Assembly (NCBI GenBank): GCA_964440675.1
Contig: CAYTTI010000001.1
Location: forward strand, 1-24,584
Reading direction: 5' to 3'
DNA: 24,584 bases
Source of the DNA: an uncultured Coriobacteriaceae bacterium
GTDB lineage: Bacteria > Actinomycetota > Coriobacteriia > Coriobacteriales > Atopobiaceae
In this document: positions 16,279-20,633 of the stretch, piece by piece
Layout: the number at the start of each line of letters is the position of its first letter
Position numbering within the stretch: position 1 is the first letter of the stretch
Translations under genes and position numbers: made by a program
The notes under the pieces: model-generated
Seen by the model: the letters and a program-made list of their open reading frames with translations, nothing else
Database searches by the model: none
Told to the model about the DNA's origin: nothing

Positions 16279-16413
16279 TTAAACAGTCAGCCTCTTACGC
16301 CCCTTTGCACGACGACGGGAAAGAACCTGACGCCCGGCTTTGGTTGCCATACGAGCACGAAAGCCATGGCACTTTGCCCGCTTCCTTTTATTTGGCTGAT
16401 ACGTACGCTTCAT
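16279..16413 (-). CDS. rpmH: 50S ribosomal protein L34 (below the ORF-track length cutoff)
   Basis: Manual translation [44 protein letters not shown], with an AAAGGAG RBS. Confidence 0.98.
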
Positions 16414-16464
16414 AACAAACTCCTTTGAGGTAGTTTCGACAGGTAACACTTGTAAGGCTCAGTA

Positions 16465-16527: not shown

Positions 16528-16662
16528 TGTGGAAGATGTTATGCTAATCGAAGGGTATTGGTTACTCATACCCAATGGTTTTCTACAAGTTTTCACATGT
16601 TGTTGAAAGTTTCTAAAAGTTTCTATCTGGAATGAAAGTTTCCAACATTTTGATGAAACTTT
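16528..16662. promoter_or_regulatory. Cluster of DnaA-box-like 9-mers and AAAGTTTC repeats upstream of the GHKL-wHTH gene
   Basis: TGTGGAAGA 16528, TTTTCTACA 16579, GTTTTCACA 16589, TGTTGAAAG 16601, TTTCCAACA 16639; AAAGTTTC at 16606, 16616 and 16635, inverted at 16655. Confidence 0.6.
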
Positions 16663-17578
16663 GTTGAGGGATGGCTGGTTTGAAGTGGCTAACGGGTTCT
16701 ATACCTTTGTTGGAGACGGCTCTGAATCATTCGAGCGTGATGAATCTCTATCATCTCTATCGATAGATACCATTCGTTATCCAGCGCGTATTGCCGTATA
16801 CGATGACCCAACAATTACCCCGCGCGTGGTCACTATCCAGCCGAAACCTGTTCGTGACTACCTCGAGGAAATAACCGCCACTGTCAATCAGCTGTCACAC
16901 GAACAGGGCGGTACTATTCCGTTCATGATTATTCGTGAGATTGTCGAAAACTACATCCATGCCTATTTCATTGCTCCAACGATATCCATACTTGATGGAG
17001 GAAATACCTTGCGCTTTGCAGATCAAGGCCCGGGGATTATCGAAAAGAACAAAGCCTTGGAATATGGAACAACTTCTGCAACGGAAGAAATGAAGCAATA
17101 CATCCGTGGCGTAGGCAGTGGCTTGCCACTCGCACAGCAGTATATGCTCGATAAAGGGGGCTCCCTATCCATTCAAGACAACATGTCTCATGGAACCGTG
17201 GTAACAATTTCAACACGTCCCGAAGAGGATGTGTCCATGCCTATCTCACCCATACCAAAACAAAGGGAGATGGTGGAGCAAGAAACACAGGCACAGCTCC
17301 AGCAGCAGTTGCAACAGATGCAAGCTGTACAAGAAACGCAGCACCTTCAATACCAAGCAGCTGCCTTACCGCTCAGTAAGCGTAGTCATCAAATTCTCGC
17401 ATATCTGTCCTCGCATGCAGAGGTTGGTCCAAAAGACCTTGTGGAAACCTATAAGGGATCACAGCCAACCTGGTCAAGGGAGTTAAAGCGTATGGAGACT
17501 CAGGGTTTGCTCGTCAAACAAGGGCAAAAACGGCGTCTCACTCCCAAGGGAAGGGCGCATATTGCCGCGGTTGAGTAA
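16661..17578 (+). CDS. Uncharacterised GHKL (HATPase_c) ATPase / winged-helix fusion; start codon uncertain (TTG 16661 or GTG 16685)
   Basis: N-box REIVENYIHA, G1 ADQGPGI, G2 GVGSGL, G3 GGSLSI...GTVVTI; Gln-rich linker; C-terminal wHTH (QILAYLSSHAEVGPKDL...SQPTWSRELKRMETQGLLVK...RRLTPKG); no HisKA H-box. Confidence 0.8.
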   Translation: MLRDGWFEVANGFYTFVGDGSESFERDESLSSLSIDTIRYPARIAVYDDPTITPRVVTIQPKPVRDYLEEITATVNQLSHEQGGTIPFMIIREIVENYIHAYFIAPTISILDGGNTLRFADQGPGIIEKNKALEYGTTSATEEMKQYIRGVGSGLPLAQQYMLDKGGSLSIQDNMSHGTVVTISTRPEEDVSMPISPIPKQREMVEQETQAQLQQQLQQMQAVQETQHLQYQAAALPLSKRSHQILAYLSSHAEVGPKDLVETYKGSQPTWSRELKRMETQGLLVKQGQKRRLTPKGRAHIAAVE

Positions 17579-17591
17579 CGCGGTTGAATAA
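17566..17591 (+). repeat. 13-bp tandem duplication including the stop codon of the GHKL-wHTH gene
   Basis: cgcggttgagtaa / cgcggttgaataa (one transition). Confidence 0.85.
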
Positions 17592-17646
17592 ATAACTCGG
17601 TCGAACAAATTTAATTGTGCGCACGTTCGGAATTCTGTGCACAACT

Positions 17647-17698
17647 TGCCGTACTCAAGTAGATTCCGCACGCAGGGTGCCATACTCGAGTAGATCCT
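17647..17698. repeat. 21-bp direct repeat with palindromic TACTYRAGTA-like cores upstream of the dnaA promoter
   Basis: tgccgtactcaagtagattcc / tgccatactcgagtagatcct; period 31; 4 differences, all transitions. Confidence 0.85.
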
Positions 17699-17707
17699 AT
17701 ATCTGAG

Positions 17708-17746
17708 TTTTCAACAATTATCTGTCCCCTATAATACTTATCGACA
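17708..17746 (+). promoter_or_regulatory. dnaA promoter flanked by DnaA-box-like sites (probable autoregulation)
   Basis: TATAAT at 17730-17735; TTTTCAACA 17708-17716 over the -35 region and TTATCGACA 17738-17746 over the likely +1. Confidence 0.7.
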
Positions 17747-17767
17747 TTTTGAGGGGGCGAAACAGGT

Positions 17768-19291
17768 ATGGATAGCTTTCAAACATCAGAAGCGCTCGCA
17801 CTTTGGCAAGACCTTATTGACTTGCTTGAAGGCGAACAAGTATCTCAATCGCTGTTAGCAATGGTAAAAAGTTGCGAGGTGGTCGATCTTTCTCCAACCA
17901 CATTAACCATTTCAACATCTGCCCGCTTTGTTCAGCGAACCTTATTGAATGACCGCAAGCAAATTGAAGAGGTGCTTTCCAAGGCAGCCTTTACTCCTTT
18001 ATCCCTTGAAATCAAGCTAGTAAGTCAACAGAACACGCCTCATGTTCCACAGGACAACACGGTCTCACGCGGAGAGTTTGAAGAACTCCAGCACCAGCTC
18101 CATGCACCACAAACAACTACAGAGATACAAGGCAGCGCAAGCACAGGCGTAATCGAAGAACCTCCGCATAAACAAAGGAACAATCCTTTAATGCTGCGCC
18201 CCACTGAAAACGACTCGCGCTTAACTTTTGAGAGGTTTGTACAAGGAAACGAAAACTCCATTGCACTCTCTGCGGCAAAGCAAGTCGCAGACGGCATTAA
18301 TAAGACATACAACCCGCTTTTTATTTATGGGAAAAGCGGGTTGGGTAAAACGCATCTTCTCAAGGCAATACAAAACTACATCTTCCAAAACGACCAAGAT
18401 CGCATTTGCGTGTATCGAACCTCGCGGGACTTTATGAGCGACTACGTCAACGCAATGCATAATACCGAACGCAGCGTCCGGGATGAATTTGAGCGCAACT
18501 ACAACGGTATCGACATCCTTATTATTGACGACATTCAATACTTAAAGCCAACCGGCGCAACCATTGAATTTTTCTTTGATACATTCAATTACCTGTCCAA
18601 CCATGGCAAACAAATCGTCATAGCTTCAGATAGATCTCCTCATGAGTTAGGTTTAGGCGCTCATGGCTTCGATGAGCGTATTACCTCGCGGTTTGACTCA
18701 GGATTCACCTGCACCATTGGAGCGCCCGAGTACGAGTTGAAGGTAGCTTTGGTACGGGTGTTTTACGAGCGTATGCGAAACGATGCAGCTCGAGAAAACA
18801 TCAGTAATCTTGACGGTACGCTTTCCGATGAAGACCTTGAGCTCATGGCAGAACGCGCGGGAAACAACATCCGCGTTATTGAAAGCTTTGTCCAAGCATG
18901 CTTAATGCGTGCGTCCCTCATTGAGCGTACACAAAAACGTCATATCCGCCGTGAAGAACTCATCAATGAAGCCACGAGGCGCTGGCCGGACGGTCAACGC
19001 ACTATCACCGTTGAGGCGATTCAACGTACGATTGAGAATGAATATGACATCTCTCATATCGACCTGATAGGCGATAAGCGCAATAAGGAACTCATGACGC
19101 CACGCCATATTGCTATTTGGTTGGCGCGCGAACTTACCGACACTACCTTGGCAGATATTGGTGACAGATTCGGTGGACGAAGCCATGCCACAGTAAAACA
19201 CAGTATTAGCTGGGTGGATAAGCACCGCAAGTCGGATCGCTCGCTTAATGAGCATCTCAACAAACTAAAAGATGCTCTCAAAAACAGTTAG
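17768..19291 (+). CDS. dnaA: Chromosomal replication initiator DnaA
   Basis: TFERFVQGNENS, YNPLFIYGKSGLGKTHLL, DILIIDDIQ, FFDTFN, RITSRF, NIR sensor II, domain IV PRHIAIWLARELT...IGDRFGGRSHATV. Confidence 0.98.
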   Translation: MDSFQTSEALALWQDLIDLLEGEQVSQSLLAMVKSCEVVDLSPTTLTISTSARFVQRTLLNDRKQIEEVLSKAAFTPLSLEIKLVSQQNTPHVPQDNTVSRGEFEELQHQLHAPQTTTEIQGSASTGVIEEPPHKQRNNPLMLRPTENDSRLTFERFVQGNENSIALSAAKQVADGINKTYNPLFIYGKSGLGKTHLLKAIQNYIFQNDQDRICVYRTSRDFMSDYVNAMHNTERSVRDEFERNYNGIDILIIDDIQYLKPTGATIEFFFDTFNYLSNHGKQIVIASDRSPHELGLGAHGFDERITSRFDSGFTCTIGAPEYELKVALVRVFYERMRNDAARENISNLDGTLSDEDLELMAERAGNNIRVIESFVQACLMRASLIERTQKRHIRREELINEATRRWPDGQRTITVEAIQRTIENEYDISHIDLIGDKRNKELMTPRHIAIWLARELTDTTLADIGDRFGGRSHATVKHSISWVDKHRKSDRSLNEHLNKLKDALKNS

Positions 19292-19333
19292 CAACCCGGA
19301 TATGAAGAAAACATTGTCTAAGCTTTGTAAGTA

Positions 19334-19520
19334 TGTGTATAAAAGATCGCCCATATCGTCCGAGATGCCTTGAATTACAACTGAGGTGTTGGAGAAGTTG
19401 ATAGATTGATGAAAGCTCGCCTACTGTTTTGTTGCACTATAGCTGCTGATATATGAGTTATCTACATGTCAACAGAAGCTACTAGTGTTGCTACTTATAA
19501 ATAAATAATAAGAATATAGA
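19334..19520 (+). other. oriC unwinding region: DnaA boxes, DnaA-trios and AT-rich tract between dnaA and dnaN
   Basis: TGTGTATAA 19334 (reverse TTATACACA); TTATCTACA 19458 and ATGTCAACA 19466 overlapping by 1 nt; GAAG; CTA CTA GTG TTG CTA CTT ATA (19479-19499, central T in all seven); AAATAAATAATAAGAATATA. Confidence 0.85.
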
Positions 19521-19532
19521 AGAGAGGAAGAA

Positions 19533-20633
19533 ATGAGATTTACTGTCAGCCAAGCTGCTCTAGCCCGAGCTATTTCTATTGTCTCAAAAGGTATTGCATC
19601 GAACTCCACCTTGCCTATTCTTTCGGGTATCTATATCAAGGCCGACAATGGAACGCTCGAGCTGCACAGCTCAAACTTAACTATTTCAATCAAGCATCAG
19701 ATTACTGCCGATGTAGAAGAACCTGGCGAAACAGTTGTATCCGGCAAAATGATTGCCAATATTGTCAAAAATCTACCTGATGAGGCAGTGAACTTTATCG
19801 GTGCTGGACACGTAGTTGATATCTCCTGCGGTAGATCGCAATACCATCTCAATACCCTTGCAGCAAGCGATTTTCCACAATTTCCTGAGCTCACCTTGCA
19901 GGACTCAATCGAGCTTCCCTCAGATCTTCTGTCCAGTATGGTAAACAAGGTGTATAAGGTTACCTCGGATGAAGCATCACGACCCTTACTCTCAGGCATT
20001 TTAATGAGGGTTGAGCAAGGTCTTATTCGCTTGGTAGCAACCGATGCGATTCGTTTAGCCGTATGTGAAGCAGAGGTCACATCAACGCACGAGATCGAAG
20101 ACTTCGAGCTCATTGTTCCGGGAACTGCCTTTCACGACGTCCTCATGCTTCCAGTCGAAGAAAGTGTTATTACCGTCGGTTCAACCGAGAACCAGGTAGT
20201 GTGCATGTACGGTAATACGACCTATGTTTCGCGTAGCATAGAAGGTGAATATCCCGACTACAAACAGTTCTTGCCACCTGCAAGTGCATCTACGATAACA
20301 TTCAATGTTCAAGAATTTGCCGATGCGCTGCGTCGCGTTGCAGTAGTCGCAGTCAATAACCCATCCGTTAAATTTGAGTTTGATAATGACAACAACGTCG
20401 CTACAATCAGTTCAATTTCTACTGACCAAGGAGAAGCAACCGAGACACTCCCCGTAGAGATAGACGGTGATTCCATCGCAACTGCTCTCAACAATCGTTT
20501 TGTTTTAGATTGTTTAGCAGCATGTCCGGCCGATATTGCACGCCTAGAGTTACAGGCCTCGATGCAACCAGCTATCTTTAAGTGCGAAGGCAAGATGGCC
20601 TACCTCTACTTACTCATGCCGGTACGGATGTAG
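19533..20633 (+). CDS. dnaN: DNA polymerase III beta sliding clamp
   Basis: STLPILSGI, ASDFPQFP, SRPLLSGI, VATDAIRLA, RSIEGEYPDY, LNNRFVLD, YLLMPVR; AGAGG RBS. Confidence 0.98.
   Translation: MRFTVSQAALARAISIVSKGIASNSTLPILSGIYIKADNGTLELHSSNLTISIKHQITADVEEPGETVVSGKMIANIVKNLPDEAVNFIGAGHVVDISCGRSQYHLNTLAASDFPQFPELTLQDSIELPSDLLSSMVNKVYKVTSDEASRPLLSGILMRVEQGLIRLVATDAIRLAVCEAEVTSTHEIEDFELIVPGTAFHDVLMLPVEESVITVGSTENQVVCMYGNTTYVSRSIEGEYPDYKQFLPPASASTITFNVQEFADALRRVAVVAVNNPSVKFEFDNDNNVATISSISTDQGEATETLPVEIDGDSIATALNNRFVLDCLAACPADIARLELQASMQPAIFKCEGKMAYLYLLMPVRM

Follow-up and report, generated by a model that had tools for sequence, protein, structure and literature searches.

The gene directly upstream of dnaA in the window (the whole stretch of 24,584 nucleotides that was analysed) is a genuine and strongly conserved gene, and its product is a predicted soluble protein that carries a GHKL ATP-binding domain with all nucleotide-binding motifs intact and a C-terminal winged-helix (wHTH) domain. 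It is a good candidate for a new factor acting at the replication origin. We infer a role in replication from the position of the gene, which is its sole link to replication. We favour, though short of calling it probable, a reading in which the protein belongs to the DnaA regulon and works at oriC or the dnaA promoter as an ATP switch or kinase tethered to DNA. Literature searches on the gene (Coriobacteriia dnaA/oriC, Eggerthella, and rpmH/dnaA/HATPase) found no published characterisation; the one loose analogue to emerge was CapK-CapS.

The open reading frame at 16661-17578 on the plus strand is present in the window's ORF list. The original prediction started the gene at TTG 16661 (305 residues), which is 24 nt too early; GTG 16685 (297 residues) is the likelier start. 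It is favoured because the database gene call P0001, with 100% identity to the protein, is 297 residues long, because tblastn alignments of relatives start at residue 9 of the 305-residue frame, and because the relatives' N-termini (M-A-R-D-F-Y-P-F-V) align with V-A-N-G-F-Y-T-F-V at 16685. Residue numbers given here refer to the 305-residue frame; subtracting 8 gives the numbering of the 297-residue protein. The genome has one copy of the gene. The features of the locus are collected in Table 1.

Table 1. Features of the rpmH-dnaA-dnaN region, in window coordinates
Feature	Position	Strand	Basis or remark
rpmH (ribosomal protein L34)	16279..16449	-	ORF list; divergent from the GHKL-wHTH gene
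DnaA-box cluster just upstream of the gene	16579..16670	.	Pattern scans, related loci
Box TTTTCTACA	16579	+	Cluster upstream of the gene
Box GTTTTCACA	16589	+	Cluster upstream of the gene
Box CTTTCAACA	16601	-	Cluster upstream of the gene
Near-palindromic GAAAGTTTC-type elements	16605-16662		Interleaved with DnaA boxes
Box TTTCCAACA	16639	+	Cluster upstream of the gene
Degenerate inverted box partner	overlaps TTG 16661		Cluster upstream of the gene
GHKL-wHTH gene	16685..17578	+	ORF list, Pfam, P0001, tblastn, relatives' start
Predicted GHKL (Bergerat-fold) nucleotide-binding module	16742..17230	+	Residues 28-190; Pfam, motifs, AF2, VIA-align
Variable linker, short and Gln-rich here	17231..17365	+	AF2, homologue lengths
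Predicted C-terminal MarR/ArsR-like wHTH	17366..17575	+	Residues 236-305; Pfam, NCBIfam, PDB profiles, VIA-align
Box TTTTCAACA	17708	+	Overlaps the -35 of the dnaA promoter-like element
TATAAT	17730-17735	+	dnaA promoter-like element, 17708..17746
Box TTATCGACA	17738	+	Flanks the dnaA promoter-like element
dnaA	17768..19291	+	ORF list; TIGR00362 match in own genome
dnaA-dnaN spacer	19458..19532	+	Boxes TTATCTACA and ATGTCAACA, followed by AT-rich DNA
dnaN	19533..20633	+	ORF list; gene order kept in 76 close loci

The nucleotide-binding module is supported by profiles, motifs and structure prediction. Pfam HATPase_c (PF02518) matches residues 89-185 (E 2e-6) with 28.7 bits, above its gathering cut-off of 26.4 bits, and it matches all 63 diverse homologues, in which the motif residues are overall invariant or at least 90% conserved. 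The ExxEN pattern of the N box (E93..E96-N97) keeps a fixed position, with N97 (the place of the Mg-coordinating Asn) and E96 invariant and E93, the acidic residue four positions ahead of N97, at least 90% conserved. The G1 box, with the adenine-binding Asp, reads D121-x-G-P-G125 (D121, G123, P124 and G125 invariant), the G2 box, a glycine-rich lid hinge, G150-V-G-S-G154 (G150, G152 and G154 invariant), and the G3 box comprises G178/T182 (G178 invariant), with constant spacings of 28 between N and G1 and 29 between G1 and G2. A family-specific beta-hairpin (R43, A45, Y47, D48, P54) forms the N-terminus of the module, preceded by only about 30 poorly conserved residues. The structure prediction of the protein alone, one of the checks proposed originally, gave a confident GHKL plus wHTH model. 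The AF2 pLDDT is 83.9 for the whole protein and mostly above 90 in the GHKL fold (residues 28-190), which aligned with known GHKL structures at Z 10-14.6 (VIA-align). The AF2 model has a beta-hairpin and one helix ahead of the N-box helix, no helical hairpin, and no predicted transmembrane or hydrophobic helix. HisKA-type domains gave no Pfam or NCBIfam match at E up to 1, and no receiver domain was found in the protein. The domain content originally described, a GHKL module with complete N, G1, G2 and G3 boxes, a C-terminal wHTH and neither HisKA nor transmembrane segment, is thus confirmed by Pfam, the motifs of the 63 homologues and AF2.

The linker that follows the module begins with a disordered stretch (residues 192-200, pLDDT <50) and continues as a Gln-rich helix (residues 202-231) in the AF2 model. 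In relatives it grows to 100-250 low-complexity residues; the homologues range from 242 to about 550 residues in length, and their matches fall in two separate stretches. Pfam and NCBIfam wHTH families match residues 233-304, the AF2 model places the wHTH at residues 240-304, and the PDB profile matches of this domain are MntR and the PhiH1 repressor. VIA-align superimposes it on OhrR, MarR and MepR with Z 11-12.5 and r.m.s.d. of 1.1-1.6 over about 70 residues, OhrR being the example with Z 12.5 and r.m.s.d. 1.3 over 69 residues. Pfam MarR_2 or MarR was found in 32-37 of the 63 homologues. The wHTH core is common to the MarR family and this protein; the MarR alignment is limited to residues 236-305, the protein terminates with the wing and one helix, and the flanking dimer-interface helices of MarR are missing.

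Of 150 good genomes in the class, 145 have a homologue and about 5 gave no match; homologues are also present in several other Actinomycetota classes, with Rubrobacteria (Rubrobacter), Thermoleophilia, other deep classes and Miltoncostaea represented. The words "inserted" and "lineage-specific" therefore understated the age of the gene. All named matches are from Actinomycetota except one from a MAG labelled Bathyarchaeia, which is probably mis-binned. The location before dnaA and the shared orientation were described correctly: the gene immediately precedes dnaA, in the same orientation, in 35/35 carriers among relatives, and the linkage is kept in 78 of the best 80 loci, all from close relatives (the remaining two end at contig edges), in all 20 distant loci, and in over 45 pairs inspected by eye at phylum level. 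The gap to dnaA in most distant carriers is -4 to about 20 nt, and in deep-branching carriers the stop codon touches or overlaps the start of dnaA. The gene is thus fixed next to dnaA across the clade, but its presence in the clade is not complete, since in G028, a genome of the same order that is 98% complete, rpmH and dnaA are directly divergent and the gene is missing. This genome and the roughly five of 150 class genomes without a match imply that the gene is dispensable in some lineages. On the other side, rpmH is followed on the minus strand by rnpA, yidD, yidC and jag, a block that lies upstream in 37/39 distant carriers and in all close loci with sufficient flank. G302 and G340 are the only genomes informative as to whether the gene tracks dnaA or rpmH after rearrangement, a comparison of little use overall, since nearly all distant carriers have rpmH upstream as well. 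The adjacency to dnaA is retained in G302, where rpmH is absent from the 2.6 kb upstream, and G340 has a transposase remnant upstream of the pair and none between the two genes.

The DnaA-box clusters that the original prediction saw on both sides of the gene hold with a lineage-specific consensus but not with the E. coli-type pattern. TTWTNCACA with one mismatch shows no window-wide enrichment (47 found, 47.9 expected). With the consensus taken from related loci in its place, TTTTCAACA with at most one mismatch matches 21 times against 8.3 expected, a number reached in 0/100 shuffles, and TTWTCDACA occurs exactly 7 times against 1.37 expected (likewise 0/100 shuffles), five of the seven sites lying within 16579-19466. 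TTWTCDACA is the predicted DnaA-box consensus of Atopobiaceae and Coriobacteriaceae, and DnaA boxes are enriched about 8-fold over coding DNA in all three spacers. The rpmH-gene spacer of related loci holds two convergent pairs (box-N13-box) that end at the ribosome-binding site; upstream of the gene, canonical DnaA boxes are found in Rubrobacter and TTTTCCACA-type boxes in an Eggerthella-like genome. The arrangement of box, TATAAT and box is kept in the GHKL-dnaA spacer of related genera. The dnaA-dnaN spacer is the probable unwinding side of oriC; in related loci a box there precedes TATTACTACTA-type trinucleotide repeats and AT-rich DNA, and TAGTAATA occurs in 54 of 76 loci. The cumulative GC skew reaches its minimum near 20-21 kb.

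The "unexplained repeats" reported on both sides of the gene are real. They comprise three copies of AAAGTTTC with one inverted copy at 16606-16662, a 13-bp tandem copy located at the stop codon of the gene, and, at 17632-17693, a tandem pair of 31 nt. In the rpmH-gene spacer the palindrome GAAA(A)S(T)TTTC has 110 copies; the other two spacers have 1 and 5, and coding DNA has 1. It was ruled out as a family-wide operator, being missing upstream of the gene in Eggerthella-like and Rubrobacter loci.

On the rpmH side, the minus strand carries a promoter-like TTGACA-18-TAGAAT (16494-16465). A look for RNA-seq runs of the window itself found none listed. In an Eggerthella-like relative, RNA-seq contigs from four studies span the gene and dnaA without a break, and in two studies the contig begins 5-6 nt ahead of the gene's ORF; contigs of this kind do not prove a single transcript for the two genes. 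Co-transcription with dnaA is not obligatory in this family, because dnaA has a promoter-like element of its own.

We suggest that the gene, as part of the DnaA regulon, might be expressed together with DnaA, and that the wHTH would hold the protein, probably as a dimer, on DNA of the dnaA-promoter/oriC region. The GHKL module could then flip the state of the protein by binding or hydrolysing ATP or by transferring phosphate, and this switch could tune dnaA transcription or the activity of DnaA and the origin, providing an energy-gated checkpoint of initiation. Judged by its sequence, the module may be either a dimerising ATP switch or a Ser/Thr-type kinase. This reading is supported by the intact motifs with fixed spacing and the confident model of both domains, by the presence in most genomes of the class and in other classes, invariably before dnaA in the pairs compared, by the short gaps and the adjacency retained in G302 and G340, and by the enrichment of DnaA boxes together with the Eggerthella-like RNA-seq contigs across the gene and dnaA. 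It is weakened because rpmH-rnpA-yidD-yidC-jag, which have no role in initiation, are nearly as tightly linked to dnaA, because G028 and about five of 150 genomes do without the gene, and because dnaA has its own promoter-like element. The stronger proposal, that the protein is a new regulator of initiation, a DnaA-regulon GHKL switch or kinase anchored by its wHTH in a bipartite origin and making DnaA activity or the expression of dnaA depend on the ATP status of the cell in Coriobacteriia, Rubrobacteria, Thermoleophilia and related deep Actinomycetota, is one we put forward as doubtful.

The linkage to dnaA might instead be the remnant of an ancestral gene order, jag-yidC-yidD-rnpA-rpmH / X-dnaA-dnaN, in which the protein would respond to ATP as a transcription factor, or sense stress, and have its targets elsewhere. 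The rpmH block lies upstream almost as constantly, so linkage to dnaA need not mean a function in replication, and the absence of the gene from G028 and the separate promoter-like element of dnaA agree with such a frozen order. However, the gene is co-oriented with dnaA, unlike the rpmH block, it abuts or overlaps the dnaA start in many lineages, which points to co-expression, a DnaA-box cluster precedes it even in Rubrobacter, and the pair stays adjacent where rpmH is not upstream. We consider this explanation unlikely, though a serious one.

Two further explanations concern the protein itself. An anti-sigma-type Ser/Thr kinase (RsbW/SpoIIAB/CapK-like) acting on, for example, a STAS protein, a sigma-factor antagonist or DnaA, with a wHTH that merely localises it, seems to us rather improbable. 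SpoIIAB belongs to the best structural matches (Z 11.0, r.m.s.d. 3.0-3.3, 121-126 residues), at the level of histidine-kinase CA domains and below 3LMM, the Ser kinases BCKDK/PDK match too, and in some sources homologues go under the name "anti-sigma regulatory factor (Ser/Thr protein kinase)". The genome itself, which is 85% complete, encodes an orphan STAS protein of 105 residues with the phospho-serine motif IDSTG and no kinase alongside, and contains no PF13581 kinase over the cut-off; CapK-CapS, in which a GHKL kinase is coupled to a protein that bears an HTH and controls the neighbouring operon, offers a precedent (EMBO J 2026, PMC13373217). Against this, the query shows no PF13581 match up to E 1, and the 25 families that the 63 homologues match most often (E up to 0.01) do not include PF13581. 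In no locus does a STAS or sigma gene adjoin the gene, and the orphan STAS protein could be served by a separate, fused STAS-HATPase_c_2 protein of the kind that relatives encode. It is very improbable that the protein is a truncated relative of the COG2865 or DIP2311 type (AlbA_2 - HATPase_c_4 - wHTH) that has lost its Schlafen-like N-terminal domain. Proteins of this type are predicted regulators of unknown function, possibly related to defence. Foldseek (E 5e-6, both domains) and VIA-align (Z 14.6, r.m.s.d. 2.7, 149 residues) both rank DIP2311 (3LMM) first, clearly above histidine kinases and SpoIIAB, but the identity is just 15-17%, neither HATPase_c_4 (PF13749) nor AlbA_2 matches in the query at E up to 1 or in the 63-homologue tally, and padloc returns generic wHTH matches only. 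The constant site beside dnaA and the single-copy, vertical distribution are also unlike those of mobile defence genes.

DnaA regulators vary among bacterial lineages, and we know of none for Coriobacteriia or deep-branching Actinomycetota. If our preferred reading of a DNA-tethered switch or kinase is true, a GHKL ATP-binding protein made together with DnaA under the control of DnaA boxes would represent a mechanistically new way of controlling initiation. Eggerthella-like genomes carry the family, which makes the idea testable in a cultivable, genetically tractable gut bacterium. Even without a role in replication, few uncharacterised genes of the class are conserved as widely as this one, and it is a reliable marker of the origin region, and the analysis also yields a DnaA-box consensus of the lineage and a conserved origin layout.

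The proposed role resembles that of the DnaA and oriC regulators Hda, SeqA, DiaA/HobA, YabA, SirA, Soj/ParA, Spo0A, CtrA, MtrA, AdpA and HP1021, to none of which homology was detected; to our knowledge, none of them has a GHKL module or is fixed as the first gene of a dnaA unit. The GHL ATPases (GyrB, MutL, Hsp90, MORC) have a transducer (ribosomal S5 domain 2-like) with a catalytic Lys, which is missing here: the GHKL module stops at about residue 190 and is followed in the AF2 model by the disordered or helical linker, and the MutL profile match (E 7e-4, 57 residues) is confined to the N-box region. Nearest by sequence profile are the CA domains of histidine kinases (KinB 3D36, EnvZ, PhoQ, CpxA, HK853), which share the N, G1, G2 and G3 boxes and the fold (E 1.8e-5 for the KinB profile; Z 10.7 against CpxA by VIA-align). 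The family differs from histidine kinases in having a fused wHTH instead of the DHp/HisKA domain, the phospho-acceptor His helix and the sensor or transmembrane part. No cognate response regulator accompanies it, the neighbours being rpmH and dnaA in all loci examined, and the third residue after the N-box Asn, Lys or Arg in histidine kinases, is an invariant His in the 63 homologues. SpoIIAB, RsbW and CapK are small stand-alone modules of similar size to the GHKL module here; their neighbours form a sporulation or immune operon, whereas the neighbour here is dnaA, without a STAS or sigma partner alongside. In CapK-CapS the HTH resides on the STAS substrate, whereas here it is fused to the GHKL module. 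The closest structural match to the module is DIP2311 of Corynebacterium diphtheriae (3LMM), a COG2865-type protein and structural-genomics target of unknown function, for which we know of no linkage to dnaA. DIP2311 has an extra N-terminal AlbA_2/Schlafen-like domain that is missing in our protein, but the likeness extends to the N-terminal beta-hairpin of the module, and the order of a GHKL module followed by a C-terminal wHTH is common to both.

The ORF that the original prediction placed between rpmH and dnaA is a real gene, for whose protein 2668 homologues turned up in a word-indexed database search; when cluster representatives were searched exhaustively, 543 clusters matched at E < 1e-3 and 255 at E < 1e-30. 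It is present in one copy in its own genome, and the database holds its own call with a length of 297 aa. The start probably needs to be moved from TTG 16661, which sits within the last, degenerate DnaA-box-like element. GTG 16685 seems better placed because relatives' matches start from residue 9 of the longer frame and their N-termini (M-A-R-D-F-Y-P-F-V) align with the residues encoded from 16685. This GHKL-wHTH gene, encoding a GHKL ATPase module and a winged helix, was found in 35 of 41 relatives, in 145 of 150 good genomes of a class-level sample, and in 112 of 296 good genomes of a phylum-level sample, where carriers occur in many families outside the class and the large-genome families gave no match; G184, G295, G228, and G265 entered these tallies solely as dnaA-positive non-carriers. 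Exact-sequence look-up identified two carriers outside the class as Rubrobacter radiotolerans and Miltoncostaea marina, and a divergent subgroup includes 'Candidatus Solincola'. The gene can no longer be called lineage-specific.

Features of the locus; nucleotide positions are those of the window, and residues are numbered from TTG 16661 (subtract 8 for the 297-aa protein)
Feature	Position	Strand	Source or remark
jag, yidC, yidD, rnpA, rpmH	rpmH 16279-16449	minus	ORF list of window
Upstream box elements	16579-16670		counterpart of related genera's upstream box pairs
GHKL-wHTH ORF	16661-17578	plus	ORF list
13-bp tandem duplication	17566-17578, 17579-17591		one base differs (92% identity)
31-nt tandem direct repeat	17632-17693		71% identity
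Gene-dnaA box elements	17708-17746		with promoter-like TTTTCA-16-TATAAT
dnaA	17768-19291	plus	ORF list
dnaN	19533-20633	plus	ORF list
GHKL fold, opening with family-specific beta-hairpin	residues 28-190		AF2 model
Disordered stretch	residues 192-200		AF2 model
Gln-rich helix	residues 202-231		AF2 model
Winged helix	residues 240-304		AF2 model

In Pfam, residues 89-185 match HATPase_c with a score over the gathering cut-off and residues 233-304 match several winged-helix families, with which NCBIfam concurs; HisKA, receiver, or other domains were found by neither. The AF2 model of the protein alone (pLDDT 83.9) likewise agrees with the predicted order of a GHKL domain lacking HisKA, a Gln-rich linker, and a C-terminal winged helix. 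Expansion of the linker into low-complexity sequence makes the homologues vary in length between about 240 and >500 residues. Across 63 diverse aligned homologues, E96, N97, H100, F103, G114, D121, G123, P124, G125, A140, I148, G150, G152, G154, G167, N174, and G178 are invariant, and E93, R43, A45, Y47, and D48 are conserved at ≥90%. The N, G1, G2, and G3 boxes described earlier are complete and are invariant or ≥90% conserved. The spacing between the N box (ExxEN), G1 (DxGPG), and G2 (GVGSG) is fixed at 28 and 29 residues, which, together with the invariant motif residues, argues that the nucleotide pocket is under strong constraint.

In sequence-profile searches, the nearest matches of the GHKL part are CA domains of histidine kinases (KinB, E 1.8e-5), and those of the C-terminus are the MntR, PhiH1-repressor, and MarR winged helices. 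DIP2311 (3LMM) was the top structural match in Foldseek, with both domains covered, and also in VIA-align (Z 14.6, r.m.s.d. 2.7, 149 residues), followed by SpoIIAB (Z 11.0) and CpxA (Z 10.7); the winged helix matched OhrR and MarR with Z 11-12.5. Matches among reviewed UniProt models were histidine-kinase CA domains only. These profile and structure matches identify the N-terminal module as a genuine GHKL domain. PF02518 is matched by every one of the 63 homologues, and HATPase_c_2 and HATPase_c_4 are both absent from their family tally. A two-component kinase was rejected since the protein has no DHp, and an RsbW-type kinase was rejected by profile, HATPase_c_2 not being in the tally. The padloc matches were generic winged-helix only.

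The DnaA-box clusters originally proposed survive in a modified form. The window shows no enrichment of the E. coli-type box when one mismatch is allowed, but k-mer counting in the rpmH-gene, gene-dnaA, and dnaA-dnaN spacers of about 90 related loci found a lineage motif, TTTTCAACA, which at ≤1 mismatch occurs 8.3, 7.7, and 6.9 times per kb in these spacers, respectively, versus 1.07 in coding DNA. This enrichment is about 8-fold in all three spacers, against just about 2.5-fold for the canonical TTATCCACA (1.6-1.7 vs. 0.67 per kb). The window itself has 21 copies of TTTTCAACA with ≤1 mismatch (8.3 expected) and seven of TTWTCDACA (1.37 expected), five of them in 16579-19466. TTWTC[A/G/T]ACA, mostly TTTTCAACA and avoiding C at position 6 (window 17708-19474 and related loci L002-L097), appears to serve as DnaA box in Atopobiaceae and Coriobacteriaceae. 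The relatives' dnaA-dnaN spacer (L018-L097) has a conserved succession of a box, TATTACTACTA / TAGTAATA trinucleotide repeats, and AT-rich DNA in 54 of 76 loci, a layout like that described for DnaA-trio unwinding modules. Because of this layout, we read the motif as the putative DnaA box of this lineage and assign the probable unwinding side of oriC to the dnaA-dnaN spacer, an assignment with which the GC-skew minimum near 20-21 kb of the window is consistent.

In related genera, two pairs of convergent boxes (box-N13-box) precede the gene and run up to the ribosome-binding site, and the gene-dnaA spacer has a TATAAT flanked by boxes, so that the gene and dnaA both look DnaA-controlled. Three canonical boxes precede the gene in Rubrobacter, and boxes of the TTTTCCACA type do so in an Eggerthella-like genome. 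A near-palindrome, GAAA(A)S(T)TTTC, shares sequence with the T-rich half of the upstream boxes and accounts for the upstream repeats noticed in the window, which are real. It is confined to the rpmH-gene spacer, where 67 of 94 loci have 110 copies between them versus 1, 5, and 1 elsewhere, counts that overstate independence because the loci are close kin; neither the Eggerthella-like nor the Rubrobacter loci show it. We regard it as a candidate composite site rather than an established operator. The 31-nt tandem repeat is missing from the nearest relative's gene-dnaA spacer of only 97 nt, and hence looks like a recent local expansion and is probably incidental. The 13-bp duplication lies across the stop codon of the gene.

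The RNA search listed no runs for the window itself. In a complete relative (3,632,260 bp), which we take to be Eggerthella lenta DSM 2243, the locus is represented in 17 RNA runs. A single contig spans the gene, dnaA, and the dnaN start in four runs from four studies, and in two of these it starts at position 28-29, 5-6 nt before the ATG of the ORF and 16 nt after a TACAAT. The contigs are consistent with expression from a promoter just upstream and with read-through into dnaA, although contigs as such are no proof of where a transcript starts or of a single mRNA.

The gene lies directly upstream of dnaA and co-oriented with it in all 35 carriers among the relatives and in all >45 phylum-level pairs compared, among them weak matches (E about 1e-13) and pairs that span the sequence start of a complete genome. 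Its end lies -4 to about 84 nt, mostly <20 nt, from the longest dnaA ORF in 20 distant loci, and the order rpmH(-), gene(+), dnaA(+), dnaN(+) holds in 80 close loci wherever the contig reaches. The predicted linkage therefore stands, but its value as a sign of a replication function is reduced: 37 of 39 distant carriers also have the rpmH-rnpA-yidD-yidC-jag block upstream, so the fixed place beside dnaA is not specific to replication genes. Two rearrangements are informative. G302 has a glycosyltransferase gene upstream and no rpmH within 2.6 kb, yet keeps the gene-dnaA adjacency; in G340, a deep-branching actinomycetote (L160, G340:C38:27446-30100), fragmented ISLre2-like (UPF0236) transposase ORFs separate rpmH from the gene but not the gene from dnaA, leaving the pair intact. 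The gene can be lost, as in G028, which belongs to the same order and is 98% complete, and where dnaA and rpmH diverge across 604 bp with no such gene between them (L119, G028:C77:8000-13000). That spacer has one exact TTTTCAACA and, among others, one box ≤1 mismatch from each of two consensuses; it has no GAAA(A)S(T)TTTC.

As read from sequence, the protein combines an intact nucleotide pocket with a domain of DNA-binding type, and the gene combines co-orientation with dnaA, near-overlap in many lineages, and DnaA boxes in its control region. We tentatively propose that the protein might be made together with DnaA, bind DNA of the origin or dnaA-promoter region, and use ATP either to switch state by dimerising or to act as a kinase, and so modulate dnaA expression or DnaA action. 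The main rival, a regulator with other targets kept in a frozen gene neighbourhood, seems only slightly less likely to us. A DNA-tethered anti-sigma-like kinase would fit the orphan STAS protein with an IDSTG motif and no adjacent kinase in the same genome, which at 85% completeness has no PF13581 kinase over the cut-off, but relatives have a separate fused STAS-kinase, and we consider this reading improbable. The orphan gene, of anti-sigma-antagonist type with IDSTG as the phospho-serine motif (105 aa; contig C7 11459-11776; L167:3960-4277, minus strand), is flanked by a TPR gene and tatA/tatC, near topA.

We found no paper describing the GHKL-wHTH gene in a literature search. New here are its corrected start codon, the lineage DnaA-box consensus with the spacer architecture around dnaA, the spacer-specific palindrome, the documented non-carrier and two rearrangement cases, and the RNA-contig evidence for the gene and dnaA in a cultivable relative. 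The protein resembles the C-terminal two-thirds of COG2865 proteins, yet has no sequence-level membership among them. Among published systems, the closest analogue is CapK-CapS (PMC13373217), in which the HTH-bearing STAS substrate of a GHKL kinase controls adjacent immune operons; the GHKL-wHTH gene differs from it in architecture and context.
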